DNA of 64,000 nt from an uncultured Planctomycetales bacterium (GCA_964572155.1 CAZNDZ010000002.1:211089-275088); one strand, 5' to 3'. Counted from the stretch's first letter, positions 29,924 through 48,862 are shown. The notes: generated by a model from the letters alone, not told the origin. A program made the numbers and translations.

Positions 29924-30004
29924 ACAGGATCCTCCATATTGAATTATATAATATATTAATTATATAGGAGGAATGGGTTTGTTGAAGTGAAAAAGTGGAA
30001 ATTT

Positions 30005-30349: not shown

Positions 30350-30591
30350 AAGAGATTTCCTTCATTTAGTATTTCTATAACTTGATCAATCTGATACATT
30401 TTTAATATTTTGCTTGGATGAGGCTCATGCAAAATAATTAAACCATATTTTTCATGCATGAATTTTCTTCTAGAACCATTACCGTAAAACTCCTCGTAAC
30501 CAAAATGCCTTAACAACCTACACACCTCTTCCCATTTGAAATCTTTTGGCCTGCTCTTAATCCTGTGAATTAATTTCTGTATTTGACTCAT
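30346..30591 (-). CDS. hicA: HicA-family mRNA interferase toxin
   Basis: 81-aa YcfA/HicA-like protein (FKWEEVCRLLRHFGYEE...HEPHPS). Confidence 0.75.
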   Translation of the reverse strand: MSQIQKLIHRIKSRPKDFKWEEVCRLLRHFGYEEFYGNGSRRKFMHEKYGLIILHEPHPSKILKMYQIDQVIEILNEGNLL

Positions 30592-30618
30592 TTATTAGTT
30601 TATCACATTTCTGTTATT

Positions 30619-30640
30619 TTGCAACTGTATATAGTTGCAA
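30619..30640. promoter_or_regulatory. palindromic operator candidate upstream of hicAB (TTGCAACT-n6-AGTTGCAA)
   Basis: Perfect 8-bp inverted repeat 28 bp upstream of the hicA start. Confidence 0.5.
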
Positions 30641-30647
30641 AAGCTAG

Positions 30648-31013
30648 TTATTTTAATCTAAAAAACGCATTCTTAATGTGTGTTATTTCTTTGGCCCTAT
30701 CCTTCATCAAAATTGAGACCACATCGAATCTGCTTAAGATGGCGACCGTGCCGTGTTTGTATTTCATGTACACTTGTGCTAGTTTGATCAGGCGTTTTTG
30801 TTTGTGGTAGGTGACGGATTCGAAGGGTTGGCCGTATTGTGTTGAGAAACGGGTTTTGACCTCCACAAACACGAGCACTCCTCCGTCTCGAGCAACTATG
30901 TCGATTTCACCTAATAAGCATCGAAAATTTTGTTCGATGATCTTAAATCCCTTTGAGTGCAAATATTCACACGCGGCTTGCTCGCCTATCTTTCCAAATG
31001 ATACATTGGTCAT
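30648..31013 (-). CDS. yraN: YraN-family (UPF0102) predicted PD-(D/E)xK endonuclease
   Basis: 121 aa (GEQAACEYLHSKGFKIIEQNFRCLLGEIDIVARDGGVLVFVEVKTR). Last gene of the long overlapping T4SS/pilus gene run. Confidence 0.75.
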   Translation of the reverse strand: MTNVSFGKIGEQAACEYLHSKGFKIIEQNFRCLLGEIDIVARDGGVLVFVEVKTRFSTQYGQPFESVTYHKQKRLIKLAQVYMKYKHGTVAILSRFDVVSILMKDRAKEITHIKNAFFRLK

Positions 31014-32131
31014 AAGCCTCCCATTGCTTTAAAACGTTCTTGGGCTTTGCTTTCTTCAAGTGTTCGAAGCTGCTCTTCTTTGGCTTGATTGAGCATGTGG
31101 TCAATCACAATGGCATAATCGCTTATATCTTTTAATTTATCTGTAAGGGAATCTTTTTCTTGTTGTAAATAGGTGATACCTTTTTGGATAATATTCTTGT
31201 AAGCATCTTCCAAGATGGGATGATCTTTATAGCGGTTGAGCCATTCTAATGCTTCATTATATTGGTCGATGGCTTGACTAATGGCACGTTGGGATGCAAT
31301 CGCTTGCACATGATTTAGACGATCAGCATCATTAAGCGTAAGTAAAAAAATGAAGTCTACAGATGTAAAAGGCCTATTAGGTTGGGACAAACTTTCTAAC
31401 AGATCCGTGGCTACTGTCTTTTGATGCTGATATGTTGAAAGCGCATTGTTAATTGTCGTGATATTCGTGTCTTTATATGCTTTTAAGACATGTCCAATCC
31501 TTTTGGATGGGCCGACTAAAAATATTGCCCCACTCTCAACTCGCCAAACAGGCAAGATGGATAGAATGTTTTCCTTCTTAGCGCCTCGAAGATTGAAAAG
31601 GTTAAATAACTTTTCAAAAAGATTTGGCGCATTTACATATTCAAAATCTTTAAAGGCGGCATTGGCTTGACAACTTTTTAATAAGCTGTCTAAATCGTTT
31701 TTATATGTTCCCCTAAAGAACTTCTCCTGAACACAATTATAGATAGCTTCTTTGCGTAGCATATTTAGATCGTGACGATTATTATCTTCCAAGTCTTTTA
31801 AACGATCGTACGTTGTATTAAAACGCAAATATGACAATGTTTGGAAATGTTTAAATACATCTGCCTCCGCTGGCGCGCCATATTCCCAAAGTAGTAAGTC
31901 AGAGGACTTTAAATTTTGACGATGCGTTGTTGCACTTAAATCATCGATGGATTTCTTAATTTCTAAATCTGGATCAATACTCCATGTCATCAAGGGCTTA
32001 ACGACAGATTTCTTATACGCATATGGATCACCTAATGCCGAGGTCAAATCATGATCTGTTTTATCGCTTTGAAATATATCTGCCATGGCATTGGATTGCA
32101 GGATCAGAATTAATAATATTACGTGCATCAT
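31010..32131 (-). CDS. secreted hypothetical protein in the T4SS/pilus cluster
   Basis: 373 aa with a signal peptide (MMHVILLILILQSNAMA). Translationally coupled on both sides. No family recognised. Confidence 0.45.
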   Translation of the reverse strand: MMHVILLILILQSNAMADIFQSDKTDHDLTSALGDPYAYKKSVVKPLMTWSIDPDLEIKKSIDDLSATTHRQNLKSSDLLLWEYGAPAEADVFKHFQTLSYLRFNTTYDRLKDLEDNNRHDLNMLRKEAIYNCVQEKFFRGTYKNDLDSLLKSCQANAAFKDFEYVNAPNLFEKLFNLFNLRGAKKENILSILPVWRVESGAIFLVGPSKRIGHVLKAYKDTNITTINNALSTYQHQKTVATDLLESLSQPNRPFTSVDFIFLLTLNDADRLNHVQAIASQRAISQAIDQYNEALEWLNRYKDHPILEDAYKNIIQKGITYLQQEKDSLTDKLKDISDYAIVIDHMLNQAKEEQLRTLEESKAQERFKAMGGL

Positions 32132-32445
32132 TTAGTTGGAGCCTCAATTAACCTTGTAACGGCTTCTTGAGCTTTTTTAAGTTGATCCATCTTCTTTTGT
32201 TGCCAATCTAAGTACGCTTGTGCATTTGCTAGACTTGGGTCGTTAAGCAGATTGATCACGACTTGAGGTGTTGTTTTTGGCCAATCTAAAATATGCTCTT
32301 TTTTCTTAAATGGTTTCTTTTTATCGACCTGAAAATATTCAACGGGTTCCAGCTTAAAGAAACTATTTGCCAATAGCGTCGAAGGCAACAGCATCACCAA
32401 AAATATTACAGCGATGTTGGGTCGGGAATTGCGGTTTTGCAGCAT
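32128..32445 (-). CDS. small secreted hypothetical protein in the cluster
   Basis: 105 aa with a signal peptide. Overlaps both neighbours. Confidence 0.4.
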   Translation of the reverse strand: MLQNRNSRPNIAVIFLVMLLPSTLLANSFFKLEPVEYFQVDKKKPFKKKEHILDWPKTTPQVVINLLNDPSLANAQAYLDWQQKKMDQLKKAQEAVTRLIEAPTK

Positions 32446-33110
32446 TCTCTAAACCTCCAATAAACCCACAGATACTTTCCGGCAGGATCAACATGATCAT
32501 TTTCCCATAAACGAGCATCTGTGCCTGGAGCCATGCACATAAGCTTATTTGGCTCTAACATTTGCACTTTATCACGGACTGGATCAACAACAAAACCCGC
32601 GGCACTGATCCCTCTCAAGGAAATCAATGCAGATGAAACCCCTGGGCTATAATGGTTGATAAATCCTGTCCTTGGATAAAGCGGCCCCCAGTTACCAATA
32701 AAATATGACGCATTATTTACGGTTGCTCTGCGCCAATGTTCTTGATTAAACTCCGATAAATACCTTATGCCCATTGTTGTGCTTAATAGCGATGAACATA
32801 AAACAGCTTGTTGTATTTGTTTCAACGGGAAATCATAGACATGCACTTCATTAAAACGTAGGTTTCCTCCGTTTAAAGCGCCTAAACTAGATTTGCTTGC
32901 GATCGTACTCATGATAAAAGTTGGCTCATAATATGAGATTCTAATGCCTGGAACATCACCAACCATGCAGGGACCGTATTGTTTTAATTGGGTGCACTGC
33001 ATATCGATCTTGGTAATCGCATGACCAATGCGCGCCACCTCACCTTGAATATCCGTAACAGCAGCGAATGCGTTTGATCCGAACAACATGAGAAAAAGAA
33101 TATGGATCAT
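32406..33110 (-). CDS. periplasmic Cys-containing protein, candidate short TraU-like F-type T4SS component
   Basis: Signal peptide. Several blocks resemble F-plasmid TraU as recalled from memory (ISYYEPTFIM ~ IGYWEPMAL; IRYLSEFNQEHW ~ IAYLSEIDPTW; conserved Cys). 234 aa, versus about 330 aa for TraU. Confidence 0.35.
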   Translation of the reverse strand: MIHILFLMLFGSNAFAAVTDIQGEVARIGHAITKIDMQCTQLKQYGPCMVGDVPGIRISYYEPTFIMSTIASKSSLGALNGGNLRFNEVHVYDFPLKQIQQAVLCSSLLSTTMGIRYLSEFNQEHWRRATVNNASYFIGNWGPLYPRTGFINHYSPGVSSALISLRGISAAGFVVDPVRDKVQMLEPNKLMCMAPGTDARLWENDHVDPAGKYLWVYWRFRECCKTAIPDPTSL

Positions 33111-33988
33111 ATTTTCATAATAAAAGCCAAGGCATAAAACGGCGGAACATTATAATCTGCTGCAACGGTATGTGTATGCCCTTGCCCCCCTCCCGTCCTT
33201 CCCGTTCGCGGGATAGGACTAAACATGCTGGCATGACCGCCTGGATTACTTCCGTACAATCCTTTATTGCTAATTAAATCAATTGAAACATTTGGATTCT
33301 CCTCGTGATCATGTGAAGGTATTTCAGAAATTGTTAAAACATGACTTCCCGTTAAGCCCGTATGATCATGACTGACACTGCCACCAGTTTGATTTAAAGC
33401 CCCCATGATATTTGTTTTAGCAAAACCTTGGTCATCTTGCCTAGCACCTACTATAAACTTATCTCTTAAATCCGGCGTACCATTATTGCCGTCGCATAAG
33501 ATCCACCCAATGGGTATATCTGCAATAGTGCCTGACCAAGCAGCAATCACACCAGCGGCGATGATATTACGATCACTAACGCCAATCATGCTGCTGATGC
33601 TACTTCCCTCAGATGACGCTTGAGACAAACGTGCCATCAACATTCCTGTCAGATTCACTGGAACTTGAGTTGTGACCGTCATGGTTTTTGATGCAAATGA
33701 TGCCTGATATGCATGATTCCAAGGATTCCTTAATGACCATAAGGGGCTTAAATAGCCCTCTGTTTGTAATTGCTCCAAATCATTAGGCCACCGACGATTG
33801 TCAGTATAATATTTCTGAGCGGCTGTTTGGATGATCCCAACCTCAGTAATGGTTTTCTCGCCGGCTTTTATTTCAATAGCCCGCACCGCCATAGGCATCA
33901 ACGCAGATGTGAGCAATGCGATGATACCCATGGCTACGGCTAATTCAATTAAACTGAATGCTTTTTTATTTAGAATGTGACGGTCCAT
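33107..33988 (-). CDS. prepilin-type minor pilin fused to a C-terminal phage tail-collar domain (putative adhesin pilin)
   Basis: Class III signal (KKA|FSLIELAVAMGII, Glu at +5). GspG-like PWNHAY motif. C-terminal tail-collar-like sequence (GWILCDGNNGTPDLRDKFIVG...SHDHTGLTGSHVLTISEIPSHDH...PPFYALAFIMKI). Confidence 0.7.
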   Translation of the reverse strand: MDRHILNKKAFSLIELAVAMGIIALLTSALMPMAVRAIEIKAGEKTITEVGIIQTAAQKYYTDNRRWPNDLEQLQTEGYLSPLWSLRNPWNHAYQASFASKTMTVTTQVPVNLTGMLMARLSQASSEGSSISSMIGVSDRNIIAAGVIAAWSGTIADIPIGWILCDGNNGTPDLRDKFIVGARQDDQGFAKTNIMGALNQTGGSVSHDHTGLTGSHVLTISEIPSHDHEENPNVSIDLISNKGLYGSNPGGHASMFSPIPRTGRTGGGQGHTHTVAADYNVPPFYALAFIMKI

Positions 33989-34419
33989 GTTGAACTTGTA
34001 TCGTCATAGGCAACCTTAGTTGCGCTATTGTTAAAATAATTGGTTAATTTATCCGCCTCAGTTTTTGCCAAACTACTCAAGGAAATATCAAATCGCGTTT
34101 TATCTGCCGTATTGGCCACCACGTTATAATCCCCTCCCCACGGATTCGTCTTACTAGCAACAAAACCATCCGGCAATACTTTCGCGGTCTTAAGAACATC
34201 AACGCTCATGCCAGCATAATTGATATTACCCGACGCTAAATAACTCTCCGCCGCTGTCCTTAAAGTTTGAACACTATTTGCCGCTGACTGAACGCGGGCA
34301 TTGTCTCTTAAACCTGATGATACTGAAATACTTAAAATGAGCACTGTTAACACAGCCAGTCCTATGGCTAGTTCTACTAAAGAAAAACCTTCTTGTGATG
34401 CGATGCTTCTTCTTTTCAT
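33970..34419 (-). CDS. prepilin-type major (pseudo)pilin, GspG-like
   Basis: Leader MKRRSIASQEG|FSLVELAIGLAVL (G-1, F+1, E+5). GspG-like NPWGGDY motif. 149 aa. Confidence 0.75.
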   Translation of the reverse strand: MKRRSIASQEGFSLVELAIGLAVLTVLILSISVSSGLRDNARVQSAANSVQTLRTAAESYLASGNINYAGMSVDVLKTAKVLPDGFVASKTNPWGGDYNVVANTADKTRFDISLSSLAKTEADKLTNYFNNSATKVAYDDTSSTWTVTF

Positions 34420-34433
34420 TTTCCTCTCCTTTT

Positions 34434-35630
34434 TTACCCCCCCGCGATCTGTGTCAAACTCCCATACACAGGAATTAAGAACGCGAAGGCAATGATGATT
34501 AAAAACACTCCACCCAACAGCAATAATGCTGGTTGAATGAGCATGACCATTTGATCGACGCGGTCATGTACGCGCTTATTAAAATATCCTGATAGGTTTG
34601 AAACATATTCCGGTAGTCGTGTCATTTCTTCTCCACGACGAATAGTAAATATCACAACAGAGGAAAAAATCGGATCTGTTTTGAGAGCTTCCCATAACGG
34701 CATACCTCCAAACAAATAATCGCGACATTGATAAACATGACGGCTAATGATGCTCACATTTAACGCGTTTAAATCATTGATGCATTTGATCAATGGCACT
34801 CCGTTGCGCAATAAAATTGATAGATTTAGAAAATAAAACGCTAAGTCTGTTTCTTTCTTGATGCGGCCCATCAATGGGATGCGATATATCACCATGTCAT
34901 AAATACGCTGATTTTTTCTTAATACGAAAATGCCTACAGTCAATAGAATCACCGGAATAACGAGCAATAAAATAAAATGTTTTTGTAAGCATACACTCAT
35001 GGCAATCACAATGCTGGCCGTCCCTTTAAGGCGTGCAGTATCTGGTAATAATTGTTTTAATTTCGGAATAACGTTTAGACCCACATACATCATCACGCTT
35101 ATTAATAAACAAAATACGATCGATGGGTATGTCAAAGCTTCGTGTAATTTATGACGGATCTCTGCTTGCCTTTTAAAATACTGCGCTAAAAGTTGATACG
35201 ACGCTTCTAACTTTCCACTCTGTTCGCCGCTTTTGATGGTCAAAATAACGATCCATGGAAAAGTATTGGTTTTTCTAAAAGCATCCGCCAGACTTAAACC
35301 CTCCTCAATCTTATCTCTTAAAACATCAATAACATGAGCTAAAGTTACATCTTGAGTAGAATCCCTCAGTGACAGCAACATCTGCGTTAAACTTAATCCT
35401 GTTTGCTGCATATTGCTTAAATCTTCAAAAAATGCCGTTAAGGTCTTTACGGATAACCGTTTCATCTGATAAAACTTTTCGAAAAATAAGACGAAATCCG
35501 GCTGTAAATCGATCAACTCCAATTGATGCACCTTTATGTATGCCATTATTTCTTGTTTGGTTGCTGATAACGAACCACGGACATCTTGACCTTGAGCATT
35601 TAATGCCTGATATTTCCAATGTTTGATCAT
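34434..35630 (-). CDS. GspF/PilC-family inner-membrane platform protein
   Basis: 398 aa with two cytoplasmic repeats and 3 TM helices, typical of the T2SSF family. Overlaps the ATPase gene by 4 bp. Confidence 0.75.
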   Translation of the reverse strand: MIKHWKYQALNAQGQDVRGSLSATKQEIMAYIKVHQLELIDLQPDFVLFFEKFYQMKRLSVKTLTAFFEDLSNMQQTGLSLTQMLLSLRDSTQDVTLAHVIDVLRDKIEEGLSLADAFRKTNTFPWIVILTIKSGEQSGKLEASYQLLAQYFKRQAEIRHKLHEALTYPSIVFCLLISVMMYVGLNVIPKLKQLLPDTARLKGTASIVIAMSVCLQKHFILLLVIPVILLTVGIFVLRKNQRIYDMVIYRIPLMGRIKKETDLAFYFLNLSILLRNGVPLIKCINDLNALNVSIISRHVYQCRDYLFGGMPLWEALKTDPIFSSVVIFTIRRGEEMTRLPEYVSNLSGYFNKRVHDRVDQMVMLIQPALLLLGGVFLIIIAFAFLIPVYGSLTQIAGG

Positions 35631-37165
35631 CCAAGCACCCGCCTTGCTTCGTCAGGGGTTGTTTTACCCTCTTTGATCATCTGCAAAACCTGCGTCTCCA
35701 TCGATGTGGCAACACCCTGTGTTTTCAAATACGCTTTTAAACCGGCCATATTCTGCGCTAATAGTAATTCCTCGATGGTGTCATCACAATCAATGATCGA
35801 TGCCACAACACTACGCCCCTTAAACCCACCCAAACAATACTTACAACCTTTTGTACAATGCGGACATACCAACCGCACCAAGCGCTGTGTGATCACCATA
35901 GAAATATTGGATGCCATATAGGCAAATGGCACACCTAAATCATGAAGCCTTAAAAATGCATCTATGCCTTGCTTAGCGTGCAGAGTGGCAAAAACTTTAT
36001 GACCTGTCATGGACGCGCGTATGGCTTCTTGCGCAGTTTGGGCATCGCGAATTTCACCAATGAGAATGATGTTGGGATCATGGCGTAAGAAAGCACGAAC
36101 GGAATTGCCAAAATTAATATCTCTTTTATCATTGGTTTGTACTTGCGTGATTAAGGCATGATGCATTTCAACGGGATCTTCAATGGTCAGAATCTTGCGC
36201 TCAATGCTTTTCATGAAATTTAACATGGCATACAGCGTCGTGGTCTTCCCACATCCTGTAGGCCCAACAATCAATACCATCCCTTCTGGCTTCTTTAATT
36301 TCTGTTCGATCGTATACCACTGCTCTGATGTATATCCCAAAGACACCAAAGGGATTGAAGCCTTCTGCTTATCTAAAAGCCGCAAGACCAGTGAACTTCC
36401 CTGCACACAGGGAATATGTGATACACGGACATCCACCACGGCATGATGATGCGTATATGTGAAACGCGCGTCATGAAATTTGCCAAAATCACTGATCGTA
36501 ACATCCGCTTTATGAAAGATGATATTGACCAACCGTTTTTGTAAGTCTAACTTTAAGGTCTGATAAAAATGCAAGATCCCATCAATGCGAAAACGTACTT
36601 CGACAGCTTTTAAGGACGGCTCTATATGAATATCCGTAGCCCCTTTCGAGAGCGCGTCATTAAAACATTGCTCTACCCACTGTGGTAGATCATCCCCTCG
36701 TGTATCATCATGTGATTTCCATACCTCATCATTATTACTTAAATCTTCTATGGCTTTACGCAACGCCGCCTCAGGCGCTAACATAAATTGTGCTTTGGTA
36801 TTGATCTTGGCTTCAATGGCATCGGTGGTTGCCATGTCGTCACTAAAAGCCATGATAAAAACAATGCCCTCATGCGCCTTGGCAGGAAAAATCATATGCT
36901 TCACCATGAAATCAACGCCTAACAATTTAACCATTTCTTGCGCGGCTTCATATCGCCCCTCATAGACACCCCATCCAACTTGTTTGGCTAAGGCATGCAC
37001 AATTTGATCGTCGCTGATAAAGTCATAATCCTTTAACACTTTCCCGATGCGTTCATGCCCATTATTCTTCTGAACGGATAAACAAAAATTTAACGCCTTA
37101 TCATTGATTAATCCTTGTTCTTTTAGAATATGACCAATGCGTTGATTGTGCATTTTACCTCCCAA
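35627..37165 (-). CDS. GspE/PilB-family secretion ATPase with N-terminal MshEN/GSPII_E_N domain
   Basis: Walker A (GPTGCGKTTTLYAML), Asp/His boxes, tetracysteine motif (CPHC...C..C). N-terminal IGHILKEQGLINDKAL domain. Confidence 0.85.
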   Translation of the reverse strand: MGGKMHNQRIGHILKEQGLINDKALNFCLSVQKNNGHERIGKVLKDYDFISDDQIVHALAKQVGWGVYEGRYEAAQEMVKLLGVDFMVKHMIFPAKAHEGIVFIMAFSDDMATTDAIEAKINTKAQFMLAPEAALRKAIEDLSNNDEVWKSHDDTRGDDLPQWVEQCFNDALSKGATDIHIEPSLKAVEVRFRIDGILHFYQTLKLDLQKRLVNIIFHKADVTISDFGKFHDARFTYTHHHAVVDVRVSHIPCVQGSSLVLRLLDKQKASIPLVSLGYTSEQWYTIEQKLKKPEGMVLIVGPTGCGKTTTLYAMLNFMKSIERKILTIEDPVEMHHALITQVQTNDKRDINFGNSVRAFLRHDPNIILIGEIRDAQTAQEAIRASMTGHKVFATLHAKQGIDAFLRLHDLGVPFAYMASNISMVITQRLVRLVCPHCTKGCKYCLGGFKGRSVVASIIDCDDTIEELLLAQNMAGLKAYLKTQGVATSMETQVLQMIKEGKTTPDEARRVLG

Positions 37166-37682
37166 TCATGATGATCTTTTCTTGACCTTGTTCATCTGTG
37201 ATAACCATTCTGTCGTCGGAAATACTCTTGACCTTATAGGCGCTATCAATAAACTGCCCTATTTTGAAATACGTCACACTGCCATTTATTAGCACAATCG
37301 CCTGTTTTTCAGCACCTAATTGAACAATGCCATTTAATTTGATGGGATCTGACGCAACGTCCTTTATGTTCACTTCAGAGCTTTGTTCATACTTAGAGAG
37401 TTTTGATTGAATTTCTTTTTGCTTCAATTGCAAATCCGCACGCATTACATCCAGATCCAATAATTTTATTTCTCGTAATCGCTCATTTTCTTGATTAATA
37501 AATGCACGCATCGGATCCTCAGGTTTTTTCTCAGGAACAACGCTTTCAACAGTCTTAATAGAGTTACTTTCTTCTACTGTCTTGTCAGGATCTTGATCCA
37601 ACATAGATATTTCTTTGGCATGTATCTGAATCTGCCAAATTAAGAAGATACTGACGAAACAACAACATTTCTTAAACCCCAT
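37155..37682 (-). CDS. PilP/GspC-like bitopic protein (secretin-interacting HR-like beta domain)
   Basis: N-terminal TM, coiled coil, C-terminal domain (IKLNGIVQLGAEKQAIVLINGSVTYFKIGQFID...KVKSISDDRMVITD) resembling PilP/GspC HR domains. Confidence 0.5.
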   Translation of the reverse strand: MGFKKCCCFVSIFLIWQIQIHAKEISMLDQDPDKTVEESNSIKTVESVVPEKKPEDPMRAFINQENERLREIKLLDLDVMRADLQLKQKEIQSKLSKYEQSSEVNIKDVASDPIKLNGIVQLGAEKQAIVLINGSVTYFKIGQFIDSAYKVKSISDDRMVITDEQGQEKIIMIGR

Positions 37683-40586: not shown

Positions 40587-40848
40587 ACGACTCCTTTTGG
40601 GTTGCTATGGGATAAGCCCCTGCTTTGGCCCATTGCCCTGGTTTAATGAGTACCAATTCTTTGTGTTCTGGGATAAATACACCATTTTCAATATGCGCTG
40701 GAACACCAACATCTTGTACAATTGGCTCATTCCAATGGTAGAACGGCACGTTGCTGATTTTGGAAGCCTCATGTTTTACCTTTTCTTGCGCAGCGCAACC
40801 CATACACAAAACACCATATAACAATAAAAACATATACCTAAAGACCAT
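40510..40848 (-). CDS. small secreted/lipoprotein-like protein upstream of the secretin (pilotin candidate)
   Basis: Signal peptide ending in Cys (MVFRYMFLLLYGVLCMGCAAQ). About 112 aa from the internal Met. Translationally coupled to the secretin. Confidence 0.35.
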   Translation of the reverse strand: MVFRYMFLLLYGVLCMGCAAQEKVKHEASKISNVPFYHWNEPIVQDVGVPAHIENGVFIPEHKELVLIKPGQWAKAGAYPIATQKESYEKPSENNNVDDVSDITSVPRSMGE

Positions 40849-43318
40849 AAGGGTGCTCCTTTGCGCATAATTGTATTGCTTCCATAAAATCACCTTCGCA
40901 TTCCTCTACTTTCTTTATTAAATATTCATTATTACGGGGCTCAGAATTTGCCACCCAATATAAAAATGGATCCGGCACAAGACGCACAACACCACAAGAG
41001 TTTTCTGTAATCACTAACCCTTCAGAAAACTTACCCTTCACGGTTTCGAGCGTCTTAAGCAACTTAATTTTCTGATCATCTAAGGATAAGCTGCTTTTAA
41101 GCAAGTCAATGACAGCAGGTTCTTGTTTAAGAAAAATCTTATTTGAGGCATTGGCAATAATGGCAATACCACTTTCAACACGGGTTAAATCTGCAATTTC
41201 TTGTGTGATGGCAATGGTTGAACAGCGGTACTTGCGAAATGTCTTAAAGGCATTGGTAATAAAATCCGCCGTATTTTTTACTTTTAACAGGGACCACGCT
41301 TCATCAATGAGCAAATATTTTCTTTTAGAGCGCATCTCCTGATGAGCTACAAAATTTGTCATAAAGAACATGAGATTAAGCAAAACAGCCACTTGTAAAT
41401 CAGGGTAAGAACTTAAGTTTGCTAACTCAAAAGCAATAAAACGGCTATTCATTTGGAATTGATTGGGCCCATCAAAGAACCCACCGTATGGTCCTTTCTT
41501 AGTAAACGGCGTTAACCGCAAAGCCAGCGTTGGCCCCATTAAAGAATTAATGCCACAACTGCTGTTAAATTCATTGTCATTTAAAATTGACGTCACATCT
41601 GATAAGAATACTTCTTGGCGTTCATCTTTCTGGCGATATGCCACCATGATGGCTTGGTGCAGGAGGCCCTCTTCTTCTCTTGTCAGACGATAACGTTCAT
41701 CTCCACCACTTGCCATTTGTGACAACAATGATAGTAAAAACGATAAATTCTCAGGGGTCGGCGGATGGGCAAAAGGATTAAATGTAACAGGATTATTCAA
41801 ATCAAAAGCAACATATTGTCCTTTCAAGATTTGACATAATTTCTTATATGAATCGCCTTTATCTAAAATAAAAAAATGACTCCCTAAACGATCGCTTTGA
41901 AGGATAAAATCATTGATAAAGAAACTTTTCCCAGCTCCTGAAGCTCCCACGACAACCCCATGGGGGTTGATGTTAGAATCAAACATATCAAAATTAACAG
42001 CTTGGCCTCGACGATTGAAGTACATTTGAGCAAGGGTTCGCGTTCCTTGATAAGCTCCAAAGACAGGCAACATATCAGCAGCATTGTTAGATAACAACCT
42101 TCTGGAGCGACGGACAAAGTTTTCGTAATATGGATCGAAATTAAGAGGCAAACACGTCAAGAATAATGATGCCCCTATTAAATCCTCCTTCATGCCTTCA
42201 CATTGAAGTCGATTAAGGCCATTGATAATCTGATCACTCTGAGCTTCTACATCTTGTGCTTGAAAACCTCGAACAATCCAATGAAAGCGGGCCTGCACGA
42301 TGCGTTGATTACCCTGATACATTTCTTTAATCACATCATCAATCTCGTTCTTCTTCGCAACAGATTCAATAGATTGATCCCCTAACCAATTTTCTTTATG
42401 CATGAACGTAAAATCTTTTTGAAACTTTAACTGATCCAAAGATTTCTGTGATGATGGAACCGTAAGGTTAACCACCATCATCAACTCAACAGCTTGATCC
42501 AATAAATTAAAACTTCCTCCTTCATAAAATTCTTTACAAAACATCCCTATATGAGTTTCTATAGGCATTTCCTTTAAACTCATCAGACACATATGTTGCT
42601 CTTCAAAGAAAAACCCTTTTGCATTCGCGGATGGACTATTAAAAAGCACTTGATCACGAATATTCTCTTCCTCATTAAACCGATGATTAGGCGTTTTTAA
42701 AGAACGTTTTGGATTTAAAATCTCGTAAAGAAAAATTGTTAAGTCTTCTGCAGATAATGGTTGAACCTTAGTATGAACCGAATTAAATAATCCTTCGATT
42801 AAGGCAATATGTTGTTTAAAAGCATTTTGATGCGCTAATAATTCGCTTTCAACCTGCACGCCATTACTTCTTTTCCAAATAGGGAAAAATCTTACTGCAA
42901 CATAAATGTCAATATGCTTTAGAACAAATTTATGGTTATTATGCTCAAACAAACCGTGTTGATGGGTTTCTATATATGAAGAACGATTCTTTAAAAAAAC
43001 AGAAGTAACATTCTCATCTTCTTTGTAATTTGCATAATTCTTAAGGGACTCATTTATATTAGACTTTGTTCTTAGGATAAGTTGGCATGCAAAGTTTTCA
43101 GATGGCAGACGAGCTAAGAAGTTTTGCCATTGGATGATCATCATATTTAAATCACCTTCTGTTTTCCCTTCAATATCCGTCACCCCCACCTTCCAAATTT
43201 TCCCAAGGCTACCGTCGGATAAAATGCACATATCGTTGGAGTATTCAATATAGGGTAGCAAGTCGACAAAACTTAAGCCCTCGTCAAATAATTGCTCTAT
43301 GTCTTTATGTCGCAGCAT
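40838..43318 (-). CDS. traC: VirB4/TraC-family type IV secretion ATPase
   Basis: 826 aa. Walker A (VVVGASGAGKSFF). Hallmark Walker B (YLLIDEAWSLL) of the CagE/TrbE/VirB4 family. Position after the traV-like gene, as in F. Confidence 0.8.
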   Translation of the reverse strand: MLRHKDIEQLFDEGLSFVDLLPYIEYSNDMCILSDGSLGKIWKVGVTDIEGKTEGDLNMMIIQWQNFLARLPSENFACQLILRTKSNINESLKNYANYKEDENVTSVFLKNRSSYIETHQHGLFEHNNHKFVLKHIDIYVAVRFFPIWKRSNGVQVESELLAHQNAFKQHIALIEGLFNSVHTKVQPLSAEDLTIFLYEILNPKRSLKTPNHRFNEEENIRDQVLFNSPSANAKGFFFEEQHMCLMSLKEMPIETHIGMFCKEFYEGGSFNLLDQAVELMMVVNLTVPSSQKSLDQLKFQKDFTFMHKENWLGDQSIESVAKKNEIDDVIKEMYQGNQRIVQARFHWIVRGFQAQDVEAQSDQIINGLNRLQCEGMKEDLIGASLFLTCLPLNFDPYYENFVRRSRRLLSNNAADMLPVFGAYQGTRTLAQMYFNRRGQAVNFDMFDSNINPHGVVVGASGAGKSFFINDFILQSDRLGSHFFILDKGDSYKKLCQILKGQYVAFDLNNPVTFNPFAHPPTPENLSFLLSLLSQMASGGDERYRLTREEEGLLHQAIMVAYRQKDERQEVFLSDVTSILNDNEFNSSCGINSLMGPTLALRLTPFTKKGPYGGFFDGPNQFQMNSRFIAFELANLSSYPDLQVAVLLNLMFFMTNFVAHQEMRSKRKYLLIDEAWSLLKVKNTADFITNAFKTFRKYRCSTIAITQEIADLTRVESGIAIIANASNKIFLKQEPAVIDLLKSSLSLDDQKIKLLKTLETVKGKFSEGLVITENSCGVVRLVPDPFLYWVANSEPRNNEYLIKKVEECEGDFMEAIQLCAKEHPYGL

Positions 43319-43892
43319 CGTATTTCCTTTTGTTTTGGGTAGTTTGCTTTATTGGGAAGCCCATTGGACTTTTAACTTTTTGATCTTCTTCTTTCATGCT
43401 TAATAACTCTCTAATCTTTTCAAAAAGAGATATGATTTGGCTGTCATGTATATTAAATCTTCCTTCTACACGTAATTCGAGTTCTTGAATCTTTTGTGCT
43501 AATTCTTTATGGGTTAGAATTAAATCTCTTAATTTGACAAAAATACGCATGATTTGTAGATTAACTTCAATGGCTTTCTCACTGTTAAGTACTGAAGATA
43601 GCATTGCTATCCCAAGCTCTGTGAATGCATATGGTGGTTTTCTAGCGCCTCCCCATCTTGATATCGCAAAATGCGATATCAAGTTTCTCATCTCATCTTG
43701 AGTTAATTGAAACATACAGTCTTCAGGAAACCTTCTTGTATTTCTTTTCACTTGCTCATTTAATCTAAAGGTTTCAACTCCATACAAAATCGCCAAATCC
43801 CTATCCAACATAACTTTTTTGCCGCGTATCAAAAAAATTCTCTCTTGTATAACTTCTATAGAGACATCACTTACTTTGATATTTTTCTTCAT
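43305..43892 (-). CDS. ORF6N (KilA-N-related) domain DNA-binding protein
   Basis: Classic ORF6N sequence (RIFLIRGKKVMLDRDLAILYGVETFRLNEQVKRNTRRFPEDCMFQLTQDE). Start taken at MKKNIKV. Occupies the F traR position between traV and traC. Confidence 0.7.
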   Translation of the reverse strand: MKKNIKVSDVSIEVIQERIFLIRGKKVMLDRDLAILYGVETFRLNEQVKRNTRRFPEDCMFQLTQDEMRNLISHFAISRWGGARKPPYAFTELGIAMLSSVLNSEKAIEVNLQIMRIFVKLRDLILTHKELAQKIQELELRVEGRFNIHDSQIISLFEKIRELLSMKEEDQKVKSPMGFPIKQTTQNKRKYDAAT

Positions 43893-44256
43893 TTTTTTCT
43901 CCTTTGCCTTCTTTTCCAGGAACAATGATAGGTAAAATTGAGTCTTGTATTTCATCCTCAATAAACCACTTTGGCCCTCGAATCATAAGATAGACCCAAT
44001 GACCAGCAACTAGGACACCGGAATCTTGATCTGACTTATGGTCTGGGATCCATACTTTTTTAACGACTGGCGGCTCAATAACGGGAACATATGGCTTTAC
44101 ATAGCCAAATACTTTTTGTTCCTTGAATTGGTCCAATTGATTTATTTCAAGATCCGGCATTAATACTTTTCTTTCTGCTGTTTCTTTGACGAGTCGGTGT
44201 GCGCAACCGCTAGTTAATAGAAGACAACTTATTAAAATTAGTGCGTAATAGGCCAT
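43867..44256 (-). CDS. small lipoprotein, TraV/VirB7-like
   Basis: Signal peptide with lipobox-like LLTSGC. 129 aa. Position between the traB-like gene and traC, as for traV in F. Confidence 0.45.
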   Translation of the reverse strand: MAYYALILISCLLLTSGCAHRLVKETAERKVLMPDLEINQLDQFKEQKVFGYVKPYVPVIEPPVVKKVWIPDHKSDQDSGVLVAGHWVYLMIRGPKWFIEDEIQDSILPIIVPGKEGKGEKNEEKYQSK

Positions 44257-45307
44257 TGATTCTCACTCCTTTTTGAACGACAAAATATACACTATTGCCG
44301 CTGGGTATATGGACAGCAGGGATGATGTATTCTGCTTGTTTTTCGTAATATTGGGATAAATCGCTGGAACTTTTGGCAAGGCCACTAAACAAGGCATGCC
44401 GGCTCACATCGCCTGTCACATTACGTTCTACCTCGCCAAAGCGACTTTGTGATGTGGTGATTTCATTGTCAGCTAAAGCTGTTGAACCACCTGACATAAA
44501 TCCCCCTAAGAATGTTACGGCTAAAGCTTTGCCAGTATTTCTAACAACTTGCCCTTTGATCCCTAATTCACCATAAGCGTCGGTGACATAGCCAATGTCT
44601 TGTTCGTGTTCAAAGACTTGGCCATTGGGTAAAACAAACGATATGGCAACAATTTGAATAAGCGCTCGCTCTGAATTTATATCCCCAACGGCTTTGCCCA
44701 AGACAAAAGCACCCTTTAATGGAACTCTTGTTTTATTTGGGCCATAAAAAGCCTCATCCAATTTGATTAAGACAGGTAATGGACTGTTTAAATCTGAAGA
44801 AGCATAAACACCAGTTAGTAATGTCCCTTTACAAAATGATCCAATCGGTAAATAAACAAATTCTTTAGCTGAATCTAATTCTTTGATCGGTGCGACAGCT
44901 AGCTCAAATGATGTAGTTATTGATGTATCCTGATTAGATGTATTTGCAGCTATTATTTCTCGAATATTATTTAACGAATCAACCACTATTTTTTGGTCTT
45001 TGTTTGACTGTTCTGTTGCTTGTTTGATGGACTGTACTTGTTCTTCCATAGCTTTGATCCTATCTTCAAAATCGTAGTAACTTTTTTGAAGACCTTTCAT
45101 GAATTCCAGCTTCTCAGTGTCCCCAACGGCTATGCCCATGGCATCTTTTGATTGTTCTTTTAAAATAGGGATATCTTTCTTTTGAGTTAGATCTGATTGA
45201 GCAAATACAAAGACACAACATATAACAGCAACGACACCCAAAACCCCATAGGAGACCAATGGATCTTTTTTAAACTGTGCTTTTAGTTTTTCGAGGTAAT
45301 CATCCAT
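44210..45307 (-). CDS. traB: TraB/VirB10-family protein
   Basis: Short cytoplasmic N-terminus, single TM (VLGVVAVICCVFVFA), coiled-coil linker, C-terminal TrbI-like beta domain (GELGIKGQV...). Position after the traK-like gene. Confidence 0.55.
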   Translation of the reverse strand: MDDYLEKLKAQFKKDPLVSYGVLGVVAVICCVFVFAQSDLTQKKDIPILKEQSKDAMGIAVGDTEKLEFMKGLQKSYYDFEDRIKAMEEQVQSIKQATEQSNKDQKIVVDSLNNIREIIAANTSNQDTSITTSFELAVAPIKELDSAKEFVYLPIGSFCKGTLLTGVYASSDLNSPLPVLIKLDEAFYGPNKTRVPLKGAFVLGKAVGDINSERALIQIVAISFVLPNGQVFEHEQDIGYVTDAYGELGIKGQVVRNTGKALAVTFLGGFMSGGSTALADNEITTSQSRFGEVERNVTGDVSRHALFSGLAKSSSDLSQYYEKQAEYIIPAVHIPSGNSVYFVVQKGVRINGLLRTNFNKLSSIN

Positions 45308-45924
45308 ATCTTTGTCTCATCTCCTTCTTGGCCACTTGGATTTAAGATGTCCGAGTTTGACGCTATCGCCAGAATACCTTTATATGAAATCTGTTGAATC
45401 GGAACCATCGTGGCGCTGTTATTCAAGTTTTTTGCACTTAGTTCGTAAATGATTGTTGTTGGAAACTCATAAGCATGAGTAAAACTTAATTCAATGGGTG
45501 AATCTTTTAATGTTATAGTTCTATGTAAAGATATCTGTGTTGATCCTGCTGGAATATTTCCTAGAAGCACATCCTTCATTAAATCCATGACATTTAGATC
45601 CCCTTTAAAAGAATTTGTTTTACCACCAATAACAACGCTTAAATCGTGTGCTTGAGATATTTGTAAACTAAGTGGATACGATGTACCTGACGCCCCTGTT
45701 ACAAAAATGTCTGCAGGTGTATTAGACTTTGGCAAGATGTATAGTGTGCGATCTACAGCTTCTACTAGAATTGAATCTGCCGCTCCGCCTTTAATGACCT
45801 TAGAAATATTTTCAGGGAATGACACTTCACTCACCTTACCAACGTTGACATGCACGGTCGTGACTTCTGCAGCATTAAGGTTGTAACTAATGACCATAAA
45901 CAGAATAATTATAAAAACTCTCAT
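45283..45924 (-). CDS. traK: TraK/VirB9-family secreted protein
   Basis: Signal peptide. Beta-rich 213-aa protein in the traE-traK-traB position. Confidence 0.5.
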   Translation of the reverse strand: MRVFIIILFMVISYNLNAAEVTTVHVNVGKVSEVSFPENISKVIKGGAADSILVEAVDRTLYILPKSNTPADIFVTGASGTSYPLSLQISQAHDLSVVIGGKTNSFKGDLNVMDLMKDVLLGNIPAGSTQISLHRTITLKDSPIELSFTHAYEFPTTIIYELSAKNLNNSATMVPIQQISYKGILAIASNSDILNPSGQEGDETKIWMITSKN

Positions 45925-46532
45925 GAAGCATGCTCCTGTTCAATGGCTTCAATAAGCAAGCCATATGGATTGCTTGATGTTGGCCCTACTATGCGTACTG
46001 TGATTAAAAAAGTTAATTGTTGCTCTTTAACTGCTTCCTTCCCCATGTACATCACCTTGACCCCTTTGACATGGACAATAAACCCTTTGCTCTTAACGTT
46101 GACAATTGGATCACTCTCGAGCGTGAACATCGACGATATATTACTGCGTTTAATTTCTTCTAAATCTTTAACTAATCTCAACTTGGTTTGCGTAAATAAC
46201 GACGGCGACATGAAACGTTGCGTTCTTTCGAACACAGCTTGGGATGTAATAGGATTGAAATTGTTCCAATTAAGCAACCACGCAGCCACAAAAGCAGACA
46301 CGGTTTCTATGCTGTTGTTTGCAGGGACCGCGACACCTGCTTGCCATACCCCTGGTATATAGTAAATTGATTTAGGTCGTGCCATTGTGTAAACCAACGA
46401 TATGCTTAAAATAACGCACACACAGCAAATTGCGATGCAAACAGCCCACAGCCGCGTGTTAATAAATTCGGCTCGAGATAAACGCTCTACAAATTGTGTG
46501 CTTTTACTTCTGACGGCGTCCATAAGCTCCAT
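45921..46532 (-). CDS. traE: TraE/VirB8-family bitopic protein
   Basis: N-terminal TM then periplasmic domain. Blocks match F TraE as recalled from memory (ERTQRFMSPSLFTQTKLRLVKDLEEIKRSNISSMFTLES vs HQALLQYIRPGAQNQMKVILAEEAKRIKNDNVNSAFFQTS). Confidence 0.6.
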   Translation of the reverse strand: MELMDAVRSKSTQFVERLSRAEFINTRLWAVCIAICCVCVILSISLVYTMARPKSIYYIPGVWQAGVAVPANNSIETVSAFVAAWLLNWNNFNPITSQAVFERTQRFMSPSLFTQTKLRLVKDLEEIKRSNISSMFTLESDPIVNVKSKGFIVHVKGVKVMYMGKEAVKEQQLTFLITVRIVGPTSSNPYGLLIEAIEQEHAS

Positions 46533-46794
46533 ACTGTTGCGTGTTCTTAGGATTTGGTGCTAAACCTGGGAAATCTATGCCGCGCACATACAACCAATGC
46601 AACAAATAACCAAAAGGTTTGCCTTGTTTAAACTTCACTAATATGACCCACCCGATAATTCCTAATATTCCTGGAACGTAAGGTTCAAGAAATAAACTAC
46701 CCAAACCTATGCCTAATGCCAAGACGGCGATATCTTCCACTTCGAGACCGAAAAGAATTTGTGGCTTATCGATACTGCGATAACATTTGCGCAT
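46504..46794 (-). CDS. traL: TraL/VirB3-family small membrane protein
   Basis: Start taken at MRKCYRS. Matches the F TraL pattern as recalled from memory (FGL..ED...L..G.....VKFKQGKPFGYLLHWLY ~ [21 protein letters not shown]). Directly downstream of the pilin gene. Confidence 0.65.
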   Translation of the reverse strand: MRKCYRSIDKPQILFGLEVEDIAVLALGIGLGSLFLEPYVPGILGIIGWVILVKFKQGKPFGYLLHWLYVRGIDFPGLAPNPKNTQQYGAYGRRQK

Positions 46795-46796
46795 GA

Positions 46797-47078
46797 TTAA
46801 CCTGTCGCAACCTTTGTTAATAACATGGGTAAGAATAAAAGCATGATGAACGCTACAGCACAAGACAACGCGAGCTTATGCCTTCCTCTTAATAATGACG
46901 CTACACCCGTCAATAAGATCACAGCCCCTAATATTTTGGCTATGGGCCCTTTTAAGATATTGATCGATTGTGTTGAGAAATCGTTGGCTACACCAAGAGG
47001 ATCATCTGCCATAACCTTCGACATGAAACAAAAAATAAATATTTGAAACAACAACACCTTACGTAACAACGACGTCAT
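46797..47078 (-). CDS. traA: T4SS pilin (TraA/VirB2/TrbC-like propilin)
   Basis: 93 aa with a signal peptide (…FMSKVMA|DDP), then two hydrophobic helices separated by a short basic loop (LLRGRHK). First small gene of the tra-like run. Confidence 0.6.
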   Translation of the reverse strand: MTSLLRKVLLFQIFIFCFMSKVMADDPLGVANDFSTQSINILKGPIAKILGAVILLTGVASLLRGRHKLALSCAVAFIMLLFLPMLLTKVATG

Positions 47079-48196
47079 ACCCTGCCTCCTTTAATAAAAA
47101 CAACTCTTGATAAAATAATTAAGACAAAGAATACCCCTACGAACACAACACAAAAATATGGATACTCAAATGTGTTGGCTTGAGTTCTTCCAACATAAAT
47201 AGATACATAGGAGCTAATGGTTGCTAATAGTGCCCATGATTTAACCCATACAAAATTTATGATGTAATGAAATAGATATGCTGTGTTGCTGCTGATGATG
47301 AAAGCTAAGATGACAAATGGAAATATTACAGCTAAAGACATTTGTGCAAGGCCATGCAAGACAGGTAGAAAATTTAATGCATGTAATACATATGGGTAAA
47401 CATCTAACTTGGAACCATCACCTATGCTTTGCTCTGCGTATGATCTAATAATGAGTTGCTTAAGATCATCGTTTGAGATATTTAATAATGTCGATAATTT
47501 TTGACGTGAGGCCTGCTTTAGATTTGGATCATTCTCGAAATACTGATCAATATCCCGCTCGATCTTCTGCCACTGTTTCTTTTCTTCTTTGGAATAATAA
47601 TCTTGTATGGTCTTACGTGTAGGCGCATCATGTTGCAAACGCGTCCATGCTGGCATGTAATGCTGCAGAATAAAACTCTTGAATGTTGCTCTTAAAGCTT
47701 TGTCTTGAAAGCCAACGTTTGTACCTTCTCTAATATATAGACAAACTTTCTGTATTTGATACGGGCTATCAAGAAACCTCAAATGCTCCGGAAGAATTTT
47801 GTCCATGATAGCAATCATTGCGAACACATACGAATCAATGCCCTGATTAACATAGGTAAATATCACAGGCACTTTATCAAACCGAATCAAAGCTTCTTTA
47901 ATGTCTTTACTCTCAACACTGGATTGACCGTATGATTCTTGGGCGCTTTTATAATCGTTTAAGGATTGTGACGGGAGAAGTAAGACAACGAGGGTAAAAA
48001 TAGAAACAACATAAACCCATATTCGGCCATACTGGCCTTTTCTGGCTAGGTTCCAAAAAATTAAGAAGTACGCCACCACCCCAAGTAGGATACCAATAGA
48101 CGATTGTTTGAAAATGTAGTCCATCAGCATTTGGGAGAAGTTTAACCCAAGAACAGACAAAGCCGTGTCGAGTGGCGTTAAACCAAAAACATGCAT
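47075..48196 (-). CDS. polytopic membrane protein, possible VirB6/TraG_N-like component
   Basis: 373 aa with 2 N-terminal and about 3 C-terminal TM helices around a roughly 200-aa hydrophilic loop. First gene of the cluster, overlapping the pilin gene by 4 bp. Confidence 0.3.
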   Translation of the reverse strand: MHVFGLTPLDTALSVLGLNFSQMLMDYIFKQSSIGILLGVVAYFLIFWNLARKGQYGRIWVYVVSIFTLVVLLLPSQSLNDYKSAQESYGQSSVESKDIKEALIRFDKVPVIFTYVNQGIDSYVFAMIAIMDKILPEHLRFLDSPYQIQKVCLYIREGTNVGFQDKALRATFKSFILQHYMPAWTRLQHDAPTRKTIQDYYSKEEKKQWQKIERDIDQYFENDPNLKQASRQKLSTLLNISNDDLKQLIIRSYAEQSIGDGSKLDVYPYVLHALNFLPVLHGLAQMSLAVIFPFVILAFIISSNTAYLFHYIINFVWVKSWALLATISSYVSIYVGRTQANTFEYPYFCVVFVGVFFVLIILSRVVFIKGGRV

Positions 48197-48319
48197 TTCA
48201 TTTGTAACTGCAATCGGGGGAAAGTTAAGGTGCGAATGAAGCTTATCGTTTAGGGGGATAAACGATTGATGAAACTACAATAATTATATTGATTATTTTG
48301 ATTGTGTCAAGAAATATTT

Positions 48320-48833: not shown

Positions 48834-48842
48834 ATGATTCTC

Positions 48843-48862
48843 CTATGTACGTTATTATGTAC
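48843..48862. promoter_or_regulatory. palindromic operator candidate upstream of phd-parE (ATGTAC-n8-GTACAT)
   Basis: 6-bp inverted repeat 10 bp upstream of the phd start codon. Confidence 0.4.

Follow-up and report, generated by a model that had tools for sequence, protein, structure and literature searches.

A hybrid operon in an uncultured Omnitrophota bacterium: F-type secretion genes joined to a type IV pilus module

Gene content of the operon

We analyzed a 64-kb stretch of DNA from an uncultured bacterium, hereafter the window, which is the reverse complement of ~145,020-209,019 of JACCDT010138498.1 (238,680 bp; assembly GCA_013565695.1). With 10 kb added past each edge, the sequence read amounts to ~84 kb of one genome. 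Positions 30648-48196 of the window carry 21 minus-strand open reading frames (ORFs), each of them intact, and neighbouring ORFs either share 4-95 nt or are separated by no more than 14 bp; they form one operon (Table 1). This operon joins an F-plasmid-type type IV secretion system (T4SS) gene set to a complete type IV pilus (T4P)/type II secretion system-like module, the latter being located inside the operon between traC and traU. A promoter-like site, the sole perfect consensus match in 29900-49000, is located in the 123 bp that separate parE from the VirB6-like gene and is, from its match to the consensus, a predicted promoter. At the opposite end, a palindrome that follows yraN is a putative terminator.

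The host of the operon is assigned, on sequence grounds, to the phylum Omnitrophota. Homologs of its TraC (n=669) are found in the hundreds at 42-75% identity, and their named sources are all Candidatus Omnitrophota or Omnitrophica. A survey restricted to one genome per GTDB species gave 54 loci with the TraC type of the window; the titles of their records read Candidatus Omnitrophota or Omnitrophica, in some cases "uncultured Planctomycetales" or "bacterium", and the complete genome of Ca. Velamenicoccus archaeovorus LiM is represented among them. L-numbers are used below as labels for the loci of relatives. Omnitrophota are widespread, uncultured and ultra-small bacteria that are thought to rely on or prey on other cells.

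Table 1. Positions of the operon genes and associated features (window coordinates unless an L-number is given)
Feature	Position	Strand	Evidence and remarks
Promoter-like site	48283..48310	-	TTGACA, 16-nt spacer, TATAAT; 12/12 matches
VirB6/TraG_N-like polytopic inner-membrane protein, 373 aa	47075..48196	-	Pfam TraG_N 1.4e-5, under curated cutoff
Candidate VirB2/TrbC-like conjugative pilin, 93 aa	46797..47078	-	Pfam TrbC/VirB2 1.4e-3 (weak)
TraL (VirB3-like)	46504..46794	-	Pfam TraL 3.2e-7; hhalign 91% vs Rhodanobacter plasmid TraL
TraE (VirB8-like role)	45921..46523	-	Pfam TraE 6.9e-12; hhalign 96.6%
TraK (VirB9-like outer-membrane core component)	45283..45924	-	Pfam TraK_N 3.5e-4; hhalign 95.2% vs plasmid TraK
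TraB (VirB10/TrbI family)	44210..45307	-	Pfam TrbI 1.2e-20; phmmer 4.9e-27 vs plasmid TraB
TraV lipoprotein (VirB7-like)	43867..44256	-	Pfam TraV 4.7e-5; lipobox LLTSGC
ORF6N-domain protein	43305..43892	-	Pfam ORF6N 2.4e-32; between traV and traC
TraC/VirB4 ATPase, 826 aa	40838..43318	-	TraC_F_IV 4.6e-21 + P-loop_TraG
Small lipoprotein	40510..40848	-	Lipobox LCMGC; precedes secretin in nearly all relatives
Secretin, MshL/PilN-type lipoprotein	39210..40553	-	Pfam Secretin 2.6e-34 + STN
PilM/GspL-like pilus assembly protein (by fold), 513 aa	37672..39213	-	AlphaFold model + Foldseek
PilP/GspC-like periplasmic protein	37155..37682	-	TIGR03021 pilP_fam 1.1e-3, Pfam T2SSC 1.6e-3 (both weak); position conserved
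PilB/MshE/GspE-type extension ATPase, 508 aa	35627..37153	-	T2SSE 3.7e-91; MshEN 1.3e-5
PilC/GspF platform protein	34434..35630	-	T2SSF 3.5e-35; GspF 1.4e-51
Major type IV prepilin	33970..34419	-	N_methyl, Bundlin 9.5e-7, PilS 1.6e-4
PilV-like minor pilin	33107..33988	-	N_methyl 6.2e-5; hhalign 96% vs PilV N-terminus
TraU, 234 aa	32406..33110	-	Pfam TraU 3.1e-12 over C-terminal part only; hhalign 99.6% vs plasmid TraU
TraF-like N-terminal remnant, 105 aa	32128..32445	-	Without thioredoxin-like domain
TraH homolog	31010..32131	-	Groups with L024 15764-17032 (Pfam TraH 8.1e-6)
YraN/UPF0102 predicted PD-(D/E)xK nuclease, last gene	30648..31013	-	PF02021 1.9e-31
Palindrome, 11 bp arms	30617..30642	.	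Directly past yraN
Multi-copy family member	2610-5669	-	
Multi-copy family members in relatives	L003 16539-20345; L039 17274-20471; L060 17759-20653; L040 2029-4353; L048 12195-16067; L079 1820-6277		

The F-type core is represented by TraL, TraE, TraK, TraB and TraV, all five with Pfam matches and with hhalign values of 76-97% against annotated F-type plasmid proteins. The best model for TraC is the F-type TraC model TIGR02746 (1.4e-111, 374 bits, the equivalog cutoff of 567 not being reached); its Walker A (GASGAGKS) and Walker B (DEAW) motifs are intact, and the columns of the catalytic motifs are invariant throughout the family. The VirB6-like protein matches a homolog in L088 (phmmer 1.2e-24) that itself bears PF07916, and the candidate VirB2-like pilin has a signal peptide and two hydrophobic helices; most relatives encode a homolog of it at the corresponding place, after the VirB6-like gene and before traL. 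Of the F-specific periplasmic factors, only TraU, TraH and an N-terminal remnant of TraF are present; TraW, TrbC and TraN were not detected in the window by family profiles or by comparison with plasmid proteins. The TraF remnant groups with a 256-aa protein of L024 (14997-15767; Pfam TraF 1.5e-8) and gave a weak hhalign value of 44% against TraF. The TraH homolog of L097 matches TIGR03755 at 1.9e-17, and a homolog search with the TraH of the window returned three proteins, one of which led to the locus L122.

The embedded module contains the parts of a type IV filament system: an extension ATPase, a platform protein, two prepilins with an N_methyl domain, a secretin and an alignment complex. 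The secretin, in which a lipobox is visible, scored 203 bits on TIGR02519 (MshL) and 140 bits (1.1e-40, under cutoff) on TIGR02520 (PilN, type IVB); among plasmid proteins, it is most similar to PilN-family secretins encoded by conjugative plasmids. No family match was obtained for the small lipoprotein encoded before it (Pfam, NCBIfam and hhalign), for which a pilotin or TcpQ-like role may be proposed. The AlphaFold model of the 513-aa protein (pLDDT 77) comprises an actin-like cytoplasmic domain, a long helix and periplasmic alpha-beta domains, and Foldseek aligned it with PilM (5eou, 5.6e-9) and with cyto-GspL in its complex with GspE (4pht, 8e-9, TM 0.59 on target); the predicted fold is that of a PilM/GspL-like partner. 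This protein is a fusion, residues 3-391 matching a 384-aa protein of L090 (7e-83) and residues 397-512 a 160-aa protein of the same locus (1e-19). Comparison by hhalign of the unknown proteins of the pilus module with single Rhodanobacter PilO2, PilM, PilP and TcpQ sequences gave no signal. The major prepilin has a leader of ~11 aa (...SQEG/FSLVE) with F at +1 and matches a plasmid type 4 major pilin (phmmer 2.1e-7). At its C-terminus, the PilV-like minor pilin has a GWILCDGNNGTPDLRDKF motif that resembles phage tail collars, and its homolog in L097 (6111-6965) matches PF07484 Collar at 3.8e-4. This collar-like C-terminus suggests that the protein is a receptor-binding adhesin at the pilus tip.

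Missing recruitment genes and the second ATPase

The proteins of the operon were compared with Pfam and NCBIfam profiles, and precomputed Pfam matches were used for all called genes of the window and its 10-kb flanks. Two ATPases only are encoded in 30648-48196, TraC/VirB4 and a PilB/GspE-type protein, which agrees with the initial annotation of the window. The same annotation had listed no VirB11, VirD4/TraD or relaxase in the cluster or in the window, and the Pfam and phmmer searches bore this out. With Pfam, no type IV coupling protein (T4CP), no relaxase of any MOB family and no VirB11 was found among the called genes of the window and the 10 kb past each edge, so that the T4CP and relaxase just beyond the window, which the annotation had named as evidence against its reading, are also absent. 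With phmmer, the T4CP and MobC-like protein of other Omnitrophota (see below) gave no match in the six-frame translation of the window (stop-to-stop ORFs of at least 40 aa), and TraD and MobH of the Rhodanobacter F-type plasmid gave none among its called genes. MobH relaxases were seen only in the Neisseria loci L086 and L087 and in no Omnitrophota locus.

The second ATPase scored 328 bits on TIGR02538 (PilB) and 304 bits on GspE, compared to 52 bits on TIGR02788 (VirB11), the cutoff of which is 250. As marks of the VirB11 family we took the model score, a length of ~330-350 aa and the lack of a GspE-type N-terminal domain, and the second ATPase shows none of the three. It carries a cysteine cluster (CPHC..CKYC) and a tandem MshEN motif for binding of cyclic di-GMP (c-di-GMP), RIGHILKEQGLINDKALNFCLSVQ followed by RIGKVLKDYDFISDDQIVHALAKQ, with a score of 39.9 on NF053729 (cutoff 38). 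Control of the pilus ATPase by c-di-GMP may be proposed from these motifs. At 3-11 kb from its gene (19966-27332) are encoded an HD-domain protein (GAF + HD_5, HD-GYP type by reading), three HisKA_7TM kinases and three receiver proteins, and a regulatory link of these genes to the pilus ATPase is possible.

Among relatives, the second ATPase always accompanies PilC, pilins and the PilM/GspL-like protein. Conversely, T4SS genes are present without it: L024 has T4SS genes and a T4CP with the pilus module wholly absent, and the clade formed by L037, L039, L041, L045 and L060 has T4SS genes without PilB, PilC, pilins, TraU or TraF within 10 kb. After traC, the loci of this clade still encode the secretin, a 156-aa protein and the PilM/GspL-like protein, yet no pilus motor. 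As judged from these gene sets, PilB is dispensable for the T4SS part. The PilB-type scores, the company of pilus genes and the existence of T4SS-bearing relatives without PilB indicate that the second ATPase is the motor of the pilus and no substitute for VirB11. To our knowledge, F-type systems have no VirB11, and its absence here is therefore normal and no anomaly. In the reference F-type plasmid NZ_CP088981, of which ~67 kb was read, the only annotated ATPase of the VirB11/PilB kind is in its pil cluster.

Relatives and chromosomal setting

The gene order from the VirB6-like gene to traH is conserved across Omnitrophota loci and recurs in about 50 of those found in GTDB species representatives. 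In L019, L020, L024, L025 and L027-L032, three extra genes are located between the VirB6-like and VirB2-like genes; they encode a 90-aa protein, a 257-aa protein and a 754-aa T4CP that matches TraG-D_C, T4SS-DNA_transf, TrwB_AAD_bind and SXT_TraD. The 257-aa protein (L088 3040-3813; homologs in L019, L024, L025 and L028-L032) has a conserved, PD-(D/E)xK-like PDG...EVE.RYK motif and matches NF041423 ("MobC family replication-relaxation") at 1.4e-9, under the family cutoff; it had no Pfam match, and a profile search against PDB sequences found nothing. It is a candidate MOBC-type relaxase of Omnitrophota, including V. archaeovorus. Its gene and that of the T4CP are found in the same loci wherever the stretch is covered. 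The junction between the VirB6-like gene and the VirB2-like gene-traL pair is visible in 28 hybrid loci, of which 8 have the module and 20 do not; L027 and L029, in which the junction is cut off, carry the T4CP too. No T4CP was found in the 10-kb flanks of the T4CP-less loci. One metagenome-assembled genome (MAG; assembly PCRK01) was considered as a case of T4CP-bearing and window-type operons occurring together and was rejected, as it holds two copies of the T4CP-bearing type.

In a neighbour-joining tree of TraC, the hybrid operons form one clade, with systems of Bdellovibrionota and a second, compact T4SS of Omnitrophota as nearest outgroups, and a T4CP is encoded downstream of traC in those outgroup loci whose sequence extends sufficiently far in that direction. 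Loss of the MobC-like/T4CP module in the lineage of the window is tentatively held to be more likely than its gain. The clade of the window is reduced in other respects: TraU has 234-253 aa compared to ~300 in the sister clade, TraF has ~100 aa compared to ~240, and the two genes that precede traU in T4CP-bearing operons (a thioredoxin-like gene and a 180-aa gene) are absent. This reduced gene set is kept in relatives with TraH identity down to 44% and TraC identity of 66-75%, and its retention at such distances indicates long purifying selection.

Two further observations concern these relatives. Downstream of traH, T4CP-bearing operons are followed by variable defence islands (L097 11153-19604; L112 11369-18871; L098 8060-17535) that contain a LexA-like gene, CBASS (patatin + SMODS), type I restriction-modification, AbiE, GmrSD and a PHP-AAA protein; only defence genes and no relaxase were found in these downstream flanks. 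The second compact T4SS (L075-L079 and L082-L084) has 23% TraC identity, a 570-aa T4CP ~5 kb downstream and a TraC-type ORF of ~920 aa, the length of which suggests a VirB3-VirB4 fusion; in L084, a secretin is located upstream.

The operon appears, from its surroundings, to be fixed in Omnitrophota chromosomes. The GC content is uniform across the window, without anomaly. One side of the window carries the menaquinone genes and genes for superoxide dismutase, peroxiredoxin, aquaporin, XseAB, SerS, sensor kinases and FadL, and the other side carries LpxB, MsbA and the Bat operon. Past one edge, the contig encodes ribonucleotide reductase, ferrochelatase and IMPDH, and past the other MetH, MoxR and FeoB. 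An upstream order BatD-LpxB-GFO-family oxidoreductase-MsbA-tetratricopeptide repeat (TPR) genes-operon is common to the window and L090, which share 66% TraC identity. Between the TPR genes and the operon, the window carries inserted genes that L090 does not have at this site: a 1134-aa repeat protein, an ORF6N fragment, MNT/HEPN, a 279-aa protein and Phd/ParE. The 1134-aa protein is made of ~60-aa repeats, and its N-terminal domain is common with the 279-aa ORF at 48879-49718. The flanks of T4CP-less loci throughout the phylum are mostly of a housekeeping nature (Kdo transferase, LpxK, ferrochelatase, RmlD, radical SAM and TPR), and no relaxase or integrase family recurs in them.

No integrase adjoins the operon, the nearest being an N-terminal fragment at 14368-15021, 15.6 kb off (att repeats were not searched). 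With the housekeeping flanks and the synteny with L090, this points to a chromosomal setting and not to a plasmid or ICE, a question that the initial annotation had wanted checked. The integrase fragment belongs to a site at 14250-15783, where a 217-aa ORF whose N-terminal domain weakly matches the SAM-like domain of phage integrases is enclosed by two tRNA-Ser genes with the anticodons CGA and TGA; the site is probably left over from an old integration event. An integrated element bounded by tRNA-Ser was rejected because SerS, the sensor kinases and FadL intervene, the GC content is uniform and the upstream flank is syntenic with L090.

The last gene, yraN, and the ORF6N gene had been placed by the initial annotation at the end of the operon and between traV and traC, respectively, and both assignments were confirmed by Pfam. 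The overlap of yraN with traH is 4 nt in the window and again 4 nt in L122, at 44% TraH identity, which indicates that the linkage is real within the sub-clade of the window. In the T4CP-bearing clade, yraN was not seen after traH. Among hybrid loci, ORF6N is present between traV and traC only in the closest relatives L011 and L058, and is absent in L090, L012 and all others; this restriction identifies it as a lineage-specific accessory insertion and no core part. Given these distributions, the DNA-related function that had been read into the two genes is a weak hint.

A multi-copy Omnitrophota family of ~800-1500-aa proteins without Pfam match has members right next to the hybrid operon in several genomes and, in L079, next to the second-type T4SS (Table 1). 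Its members have a conserved N-terminal part of ~340 aa with a signal peptide, a variable middle and a conserved C-terminal part of ~65 aa, an architecture that resembles that of a cargo or effector protein.

Function and comparison with known systems

Combined, these results are best accommodated by a domesticated machine for cell contact or transport that would operate independently of a coupling protein. We hold this reading of function with moderate confidence, and the operon of the window probably no longer conjugates on its own. A non-conjugative system is best supported because the T4CP-less form is found in ~20 species-level genomes, with housekeeping flanks, upstream synteny and no adjacent integrase. 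Several observations weigh against it. No prepilin peptidase (A24) and no retraction ATPase were found in the window by precomputed Pfam, although a peptidase may be encoded in another part of the genome, and the VirB2-like and PilP-like identities are supported by weak scores. Toxin-antitoxin pairs are present on both flanks, as at the edges of genomic islands (Phd/ParE and MNT/HEPN upstream, 48320-54230; HicAB downstream, 30005-30591). In the TraC tree, which has two main branches, the T4CP-bearing loci fall within one of them, in a polytomy next to the clade of the window. Gene content was read over ~84 kb, about a third of the 238-kb contig, and a T4CP or relaxase may sit elsewhere. Finally, MAGs of relatives hold the second T4SS with its own T4CP (L078 with L018, L079 with L054 and, for the closest relative, L082 with L011).

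The last two points would favour a system that still conjugates or mobilises DNA, with a T4CP and a relaxase encoded by a second T4SS or a plasmid and acting in trans, and the presence of a T4CP and a MobC-like protein in sister-clade operons indicates that the channel type is compatible with DNA transfer. However, T4CPs usually co-evolve with and adjoin their channel, the second T4SS is very distant by its TraC, and the ~20 genomes that keep the T4CP-less form have no T4CP in the 10-kb flanks; with the housekeeping context, the synteny with a distant relative and the lack of an adjoining integrase, provision in trans seems unlikely. The missing T4CP and relaxase could also be a sign of decay, the operon being an inactive remnant of an integrated conjugative element, which would fit with the short TraU, the truncated TraF, the absence of TraW, TrbC and TraN, the flanking toxin-antitoxin genes and the integrase fragment 15 kb away. 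This is very improbable in view of the 21 intact and tightly coupled ORFs (21/21), the invariant catalytic motifs of TraC and the persistence of the same reduced set in relatives under what must have been long purifying selection.

Uptake of DNA in the manner of ComB, with the T4P and secretin capturing DNA and YraN processing it, is improbable, although it would draw on several features of the operon. Homologues of VirB2, 3, 4, 6, 7, 8, 9 and 10 without VirB11 and VirD4 are what we take to be the ComB set; a secretin, a pilus ATPase and pilins are the usual uptake apparatus, with weak matches to the HofQ, ComGA, ComGB and ComGC models; and yraN is translationally coupled to traH in the window and in L122. 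Yet the competence models matched far under their cutoffs and more weakly than PilB, GspE and MshL, comEC, comEA, dprA and pilT are absent from the called genes of the window (precomputed Pfam), YraN, a near-universal housekeeping gene, does not close the operon in other clades, and TraU and TraH, which are F-specific, as well as the PilV-like adhesin speak for contact between cells. Recruitment of the PilB-like ATPase as a VirB11-type motor of the T4SS had been offered by the initial annotation beside a non-conjugative function and recruitment genes located elsewhere; of the three, the non-conjugative function is the best supported, whereas the PilB-like motor of the T4SS is extremely improbable. 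Membership in the same superfamily (PF00437) and its position as the only second ATPase of the operon are in its favour, but the scores separate the protein from VirB11, the MshEN domain and cysteine cluster are features of GspE/MshE-type ATPases and not of VirB11, the gene travels with its own pilus module while relatives keep T4SS genes without it, and F-type systems function without VirB11.

For the domesticated, coupling-protein-independent machine that we favour, the following scheme may be proposed. A conjugation channel and a contact pilus, paired as on conjugative plasmids and integrative and conjugative elements (ICEs), would have become fixed in the chromosome. TraC would power the secretion-system part, while the PilB-like ATPase would dock on the PilM/GspL-like protein and PilC and extend a thin pilus through the secretin. 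Without the MobC-like protein and the T4CP, the machine alone would be unable to recruit relaxase-bound DNA. The lineage would also have trimmed periplasmic F-specific factors, leaving a short TraU, a TraF without its thioredoxin-like domain and two genes fewer. The thin pilus may attach through its collar-domain adhesin to a host or partner cell, and the T4SS, which would span the envelope, may provide a conjugative-type pilus or a conduit.

A broader proposal, which we regard as doubtful, is that the T4SS/T4P operon is a conserved organelle by which ultra-small, host-dependent Omnitrophota contact partners or prey. The form with T4CP and MobC-like protein, present in the predator Ca. V. archaeovorus, would inject nucleic acid or protein into other cells, and the far commoner T4CP-less form would have been repurposed for import from the host or secretion onto it, with a secretin beside an F-type channel. 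Full-text searches of the literature at hand found no description of the hybrid operon. Type IVa and Tad pili of Omnitrophota were described by Seymour et al. 2023 (PMC10066038) and a T2SS/Tad-like locus beside Omnitrophota giant genes by West-Roberts et al. 2023, neither of which mentions the hybrid operon; it is not mentioned in 2026 preprints on Omnitrophota either. A 2026 paper (PMC13153191) proposed that V. archaeovorus transfers molecules into its prey cells, and it is a matter of speculation that the T4CP-bearing operon of this bacterium is a candidate route for such transfer. The operon bears on how Omnitrophota contact partner cells and exchange material with them, and its forms with and without the DNA-recruiting module provide a natural comparison for the role of a T4SS after loss of the coupling protein and for the cooperation of a secretin with an F-type channel.

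The T4SS part is closest to the F-type (MPF_F) systems of F and of SXT/R391-like MOBH elements such as that of Rhodanobacter denitrificans (NZ_CP088981). Like them, it has TraL, E, K, B, V, C, U, H, a TraG_N-type VirB6 and, as an N-terminal remnant, TraF; traL-E-K-B-V-(small gene)-C follow one another as in these systems, VirB11 is lacking and TraC scores best on the F-type model. It differs from them by the absence of TraD, relaxase, TraW, TrbC, TraN and the C-terminal TraG domain, by a pilin that is VirB2/TrbC-like instead of TraA-like, by the truncated TraF and by the T4P module inside the operon; whereas F-type systems reside on mobile elements, the operon of the window is chromosomal and conserved across a phylum. 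NZ_CP088981 itself carries both an F-type MOBH T4SS and a pil cluster, without VirB11. The pilus part shares its gene order with the type IVb thin-pilus clusters pilL-pilV (IncI1 R64, PAPI-1/ICEclc-type ICEs and the pil cluster of NZ_CP088981), that is a small protein, a PilN-family lipoprotein secretin, PilO/PilM-like, PilP, ATPase, platform, major pilin and PilV-like minor pilin; judged against the annotated plasmid cluster, this agrees with the R64-type order pilN-O-P-Q-R-S-V. These clusters are likewise tied to conjugation-type T4SS, but as separate clusters, whereas that of the window is interleaved in the T4SS operon. In contrast to the R64-type thin pilus, the prepilin leader is short with F at +1, as in type IVa pilins or pseudopilins, and the ATPase and secretin score best on MshE/PilB and MshL models; an R64-type prepilin peptidase (PilU), lytic transglycosylase (PilT, SLT) and shufflon/Rci were not found in the window.

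The T4CP-bearing operon of Ca. V. archaeovorus LiM (NZ_CP019384.1 602,710-625,238), with those of L019-L032, L088 and L097-L112, is gene-for-gene orthologous to that of the window at 47% TraC identity. Unlike the window, it has the genes for the 90-aa protein, the 257-aa MobC-like protein and the 754-aa T4CP, full-length TraU and TraF, the extra thioredoxin-like and 180-aa genes before traU, and defence islands instead of yraN at its end. T4SS that work without a coupling protein include Helicobacter ComB, which takes up DNA, Bordetella Ptl and Brucella VirB, all of the P-type (VirB-like). Like these, the operon of the window presumably encodes a VirB4-driven envelope channel without VirD4-type protein or relaxase, and ComB is, as we take it, also devoid of VirB11; we know of no type IV pilus and secretin module embedded in any of the three. 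What distinguishes the present operon is that an F-type T4SS and a conjugative thin pilus, both of known kinds, are fused in a single chromosomal operon, here without T4CP or relaxase.

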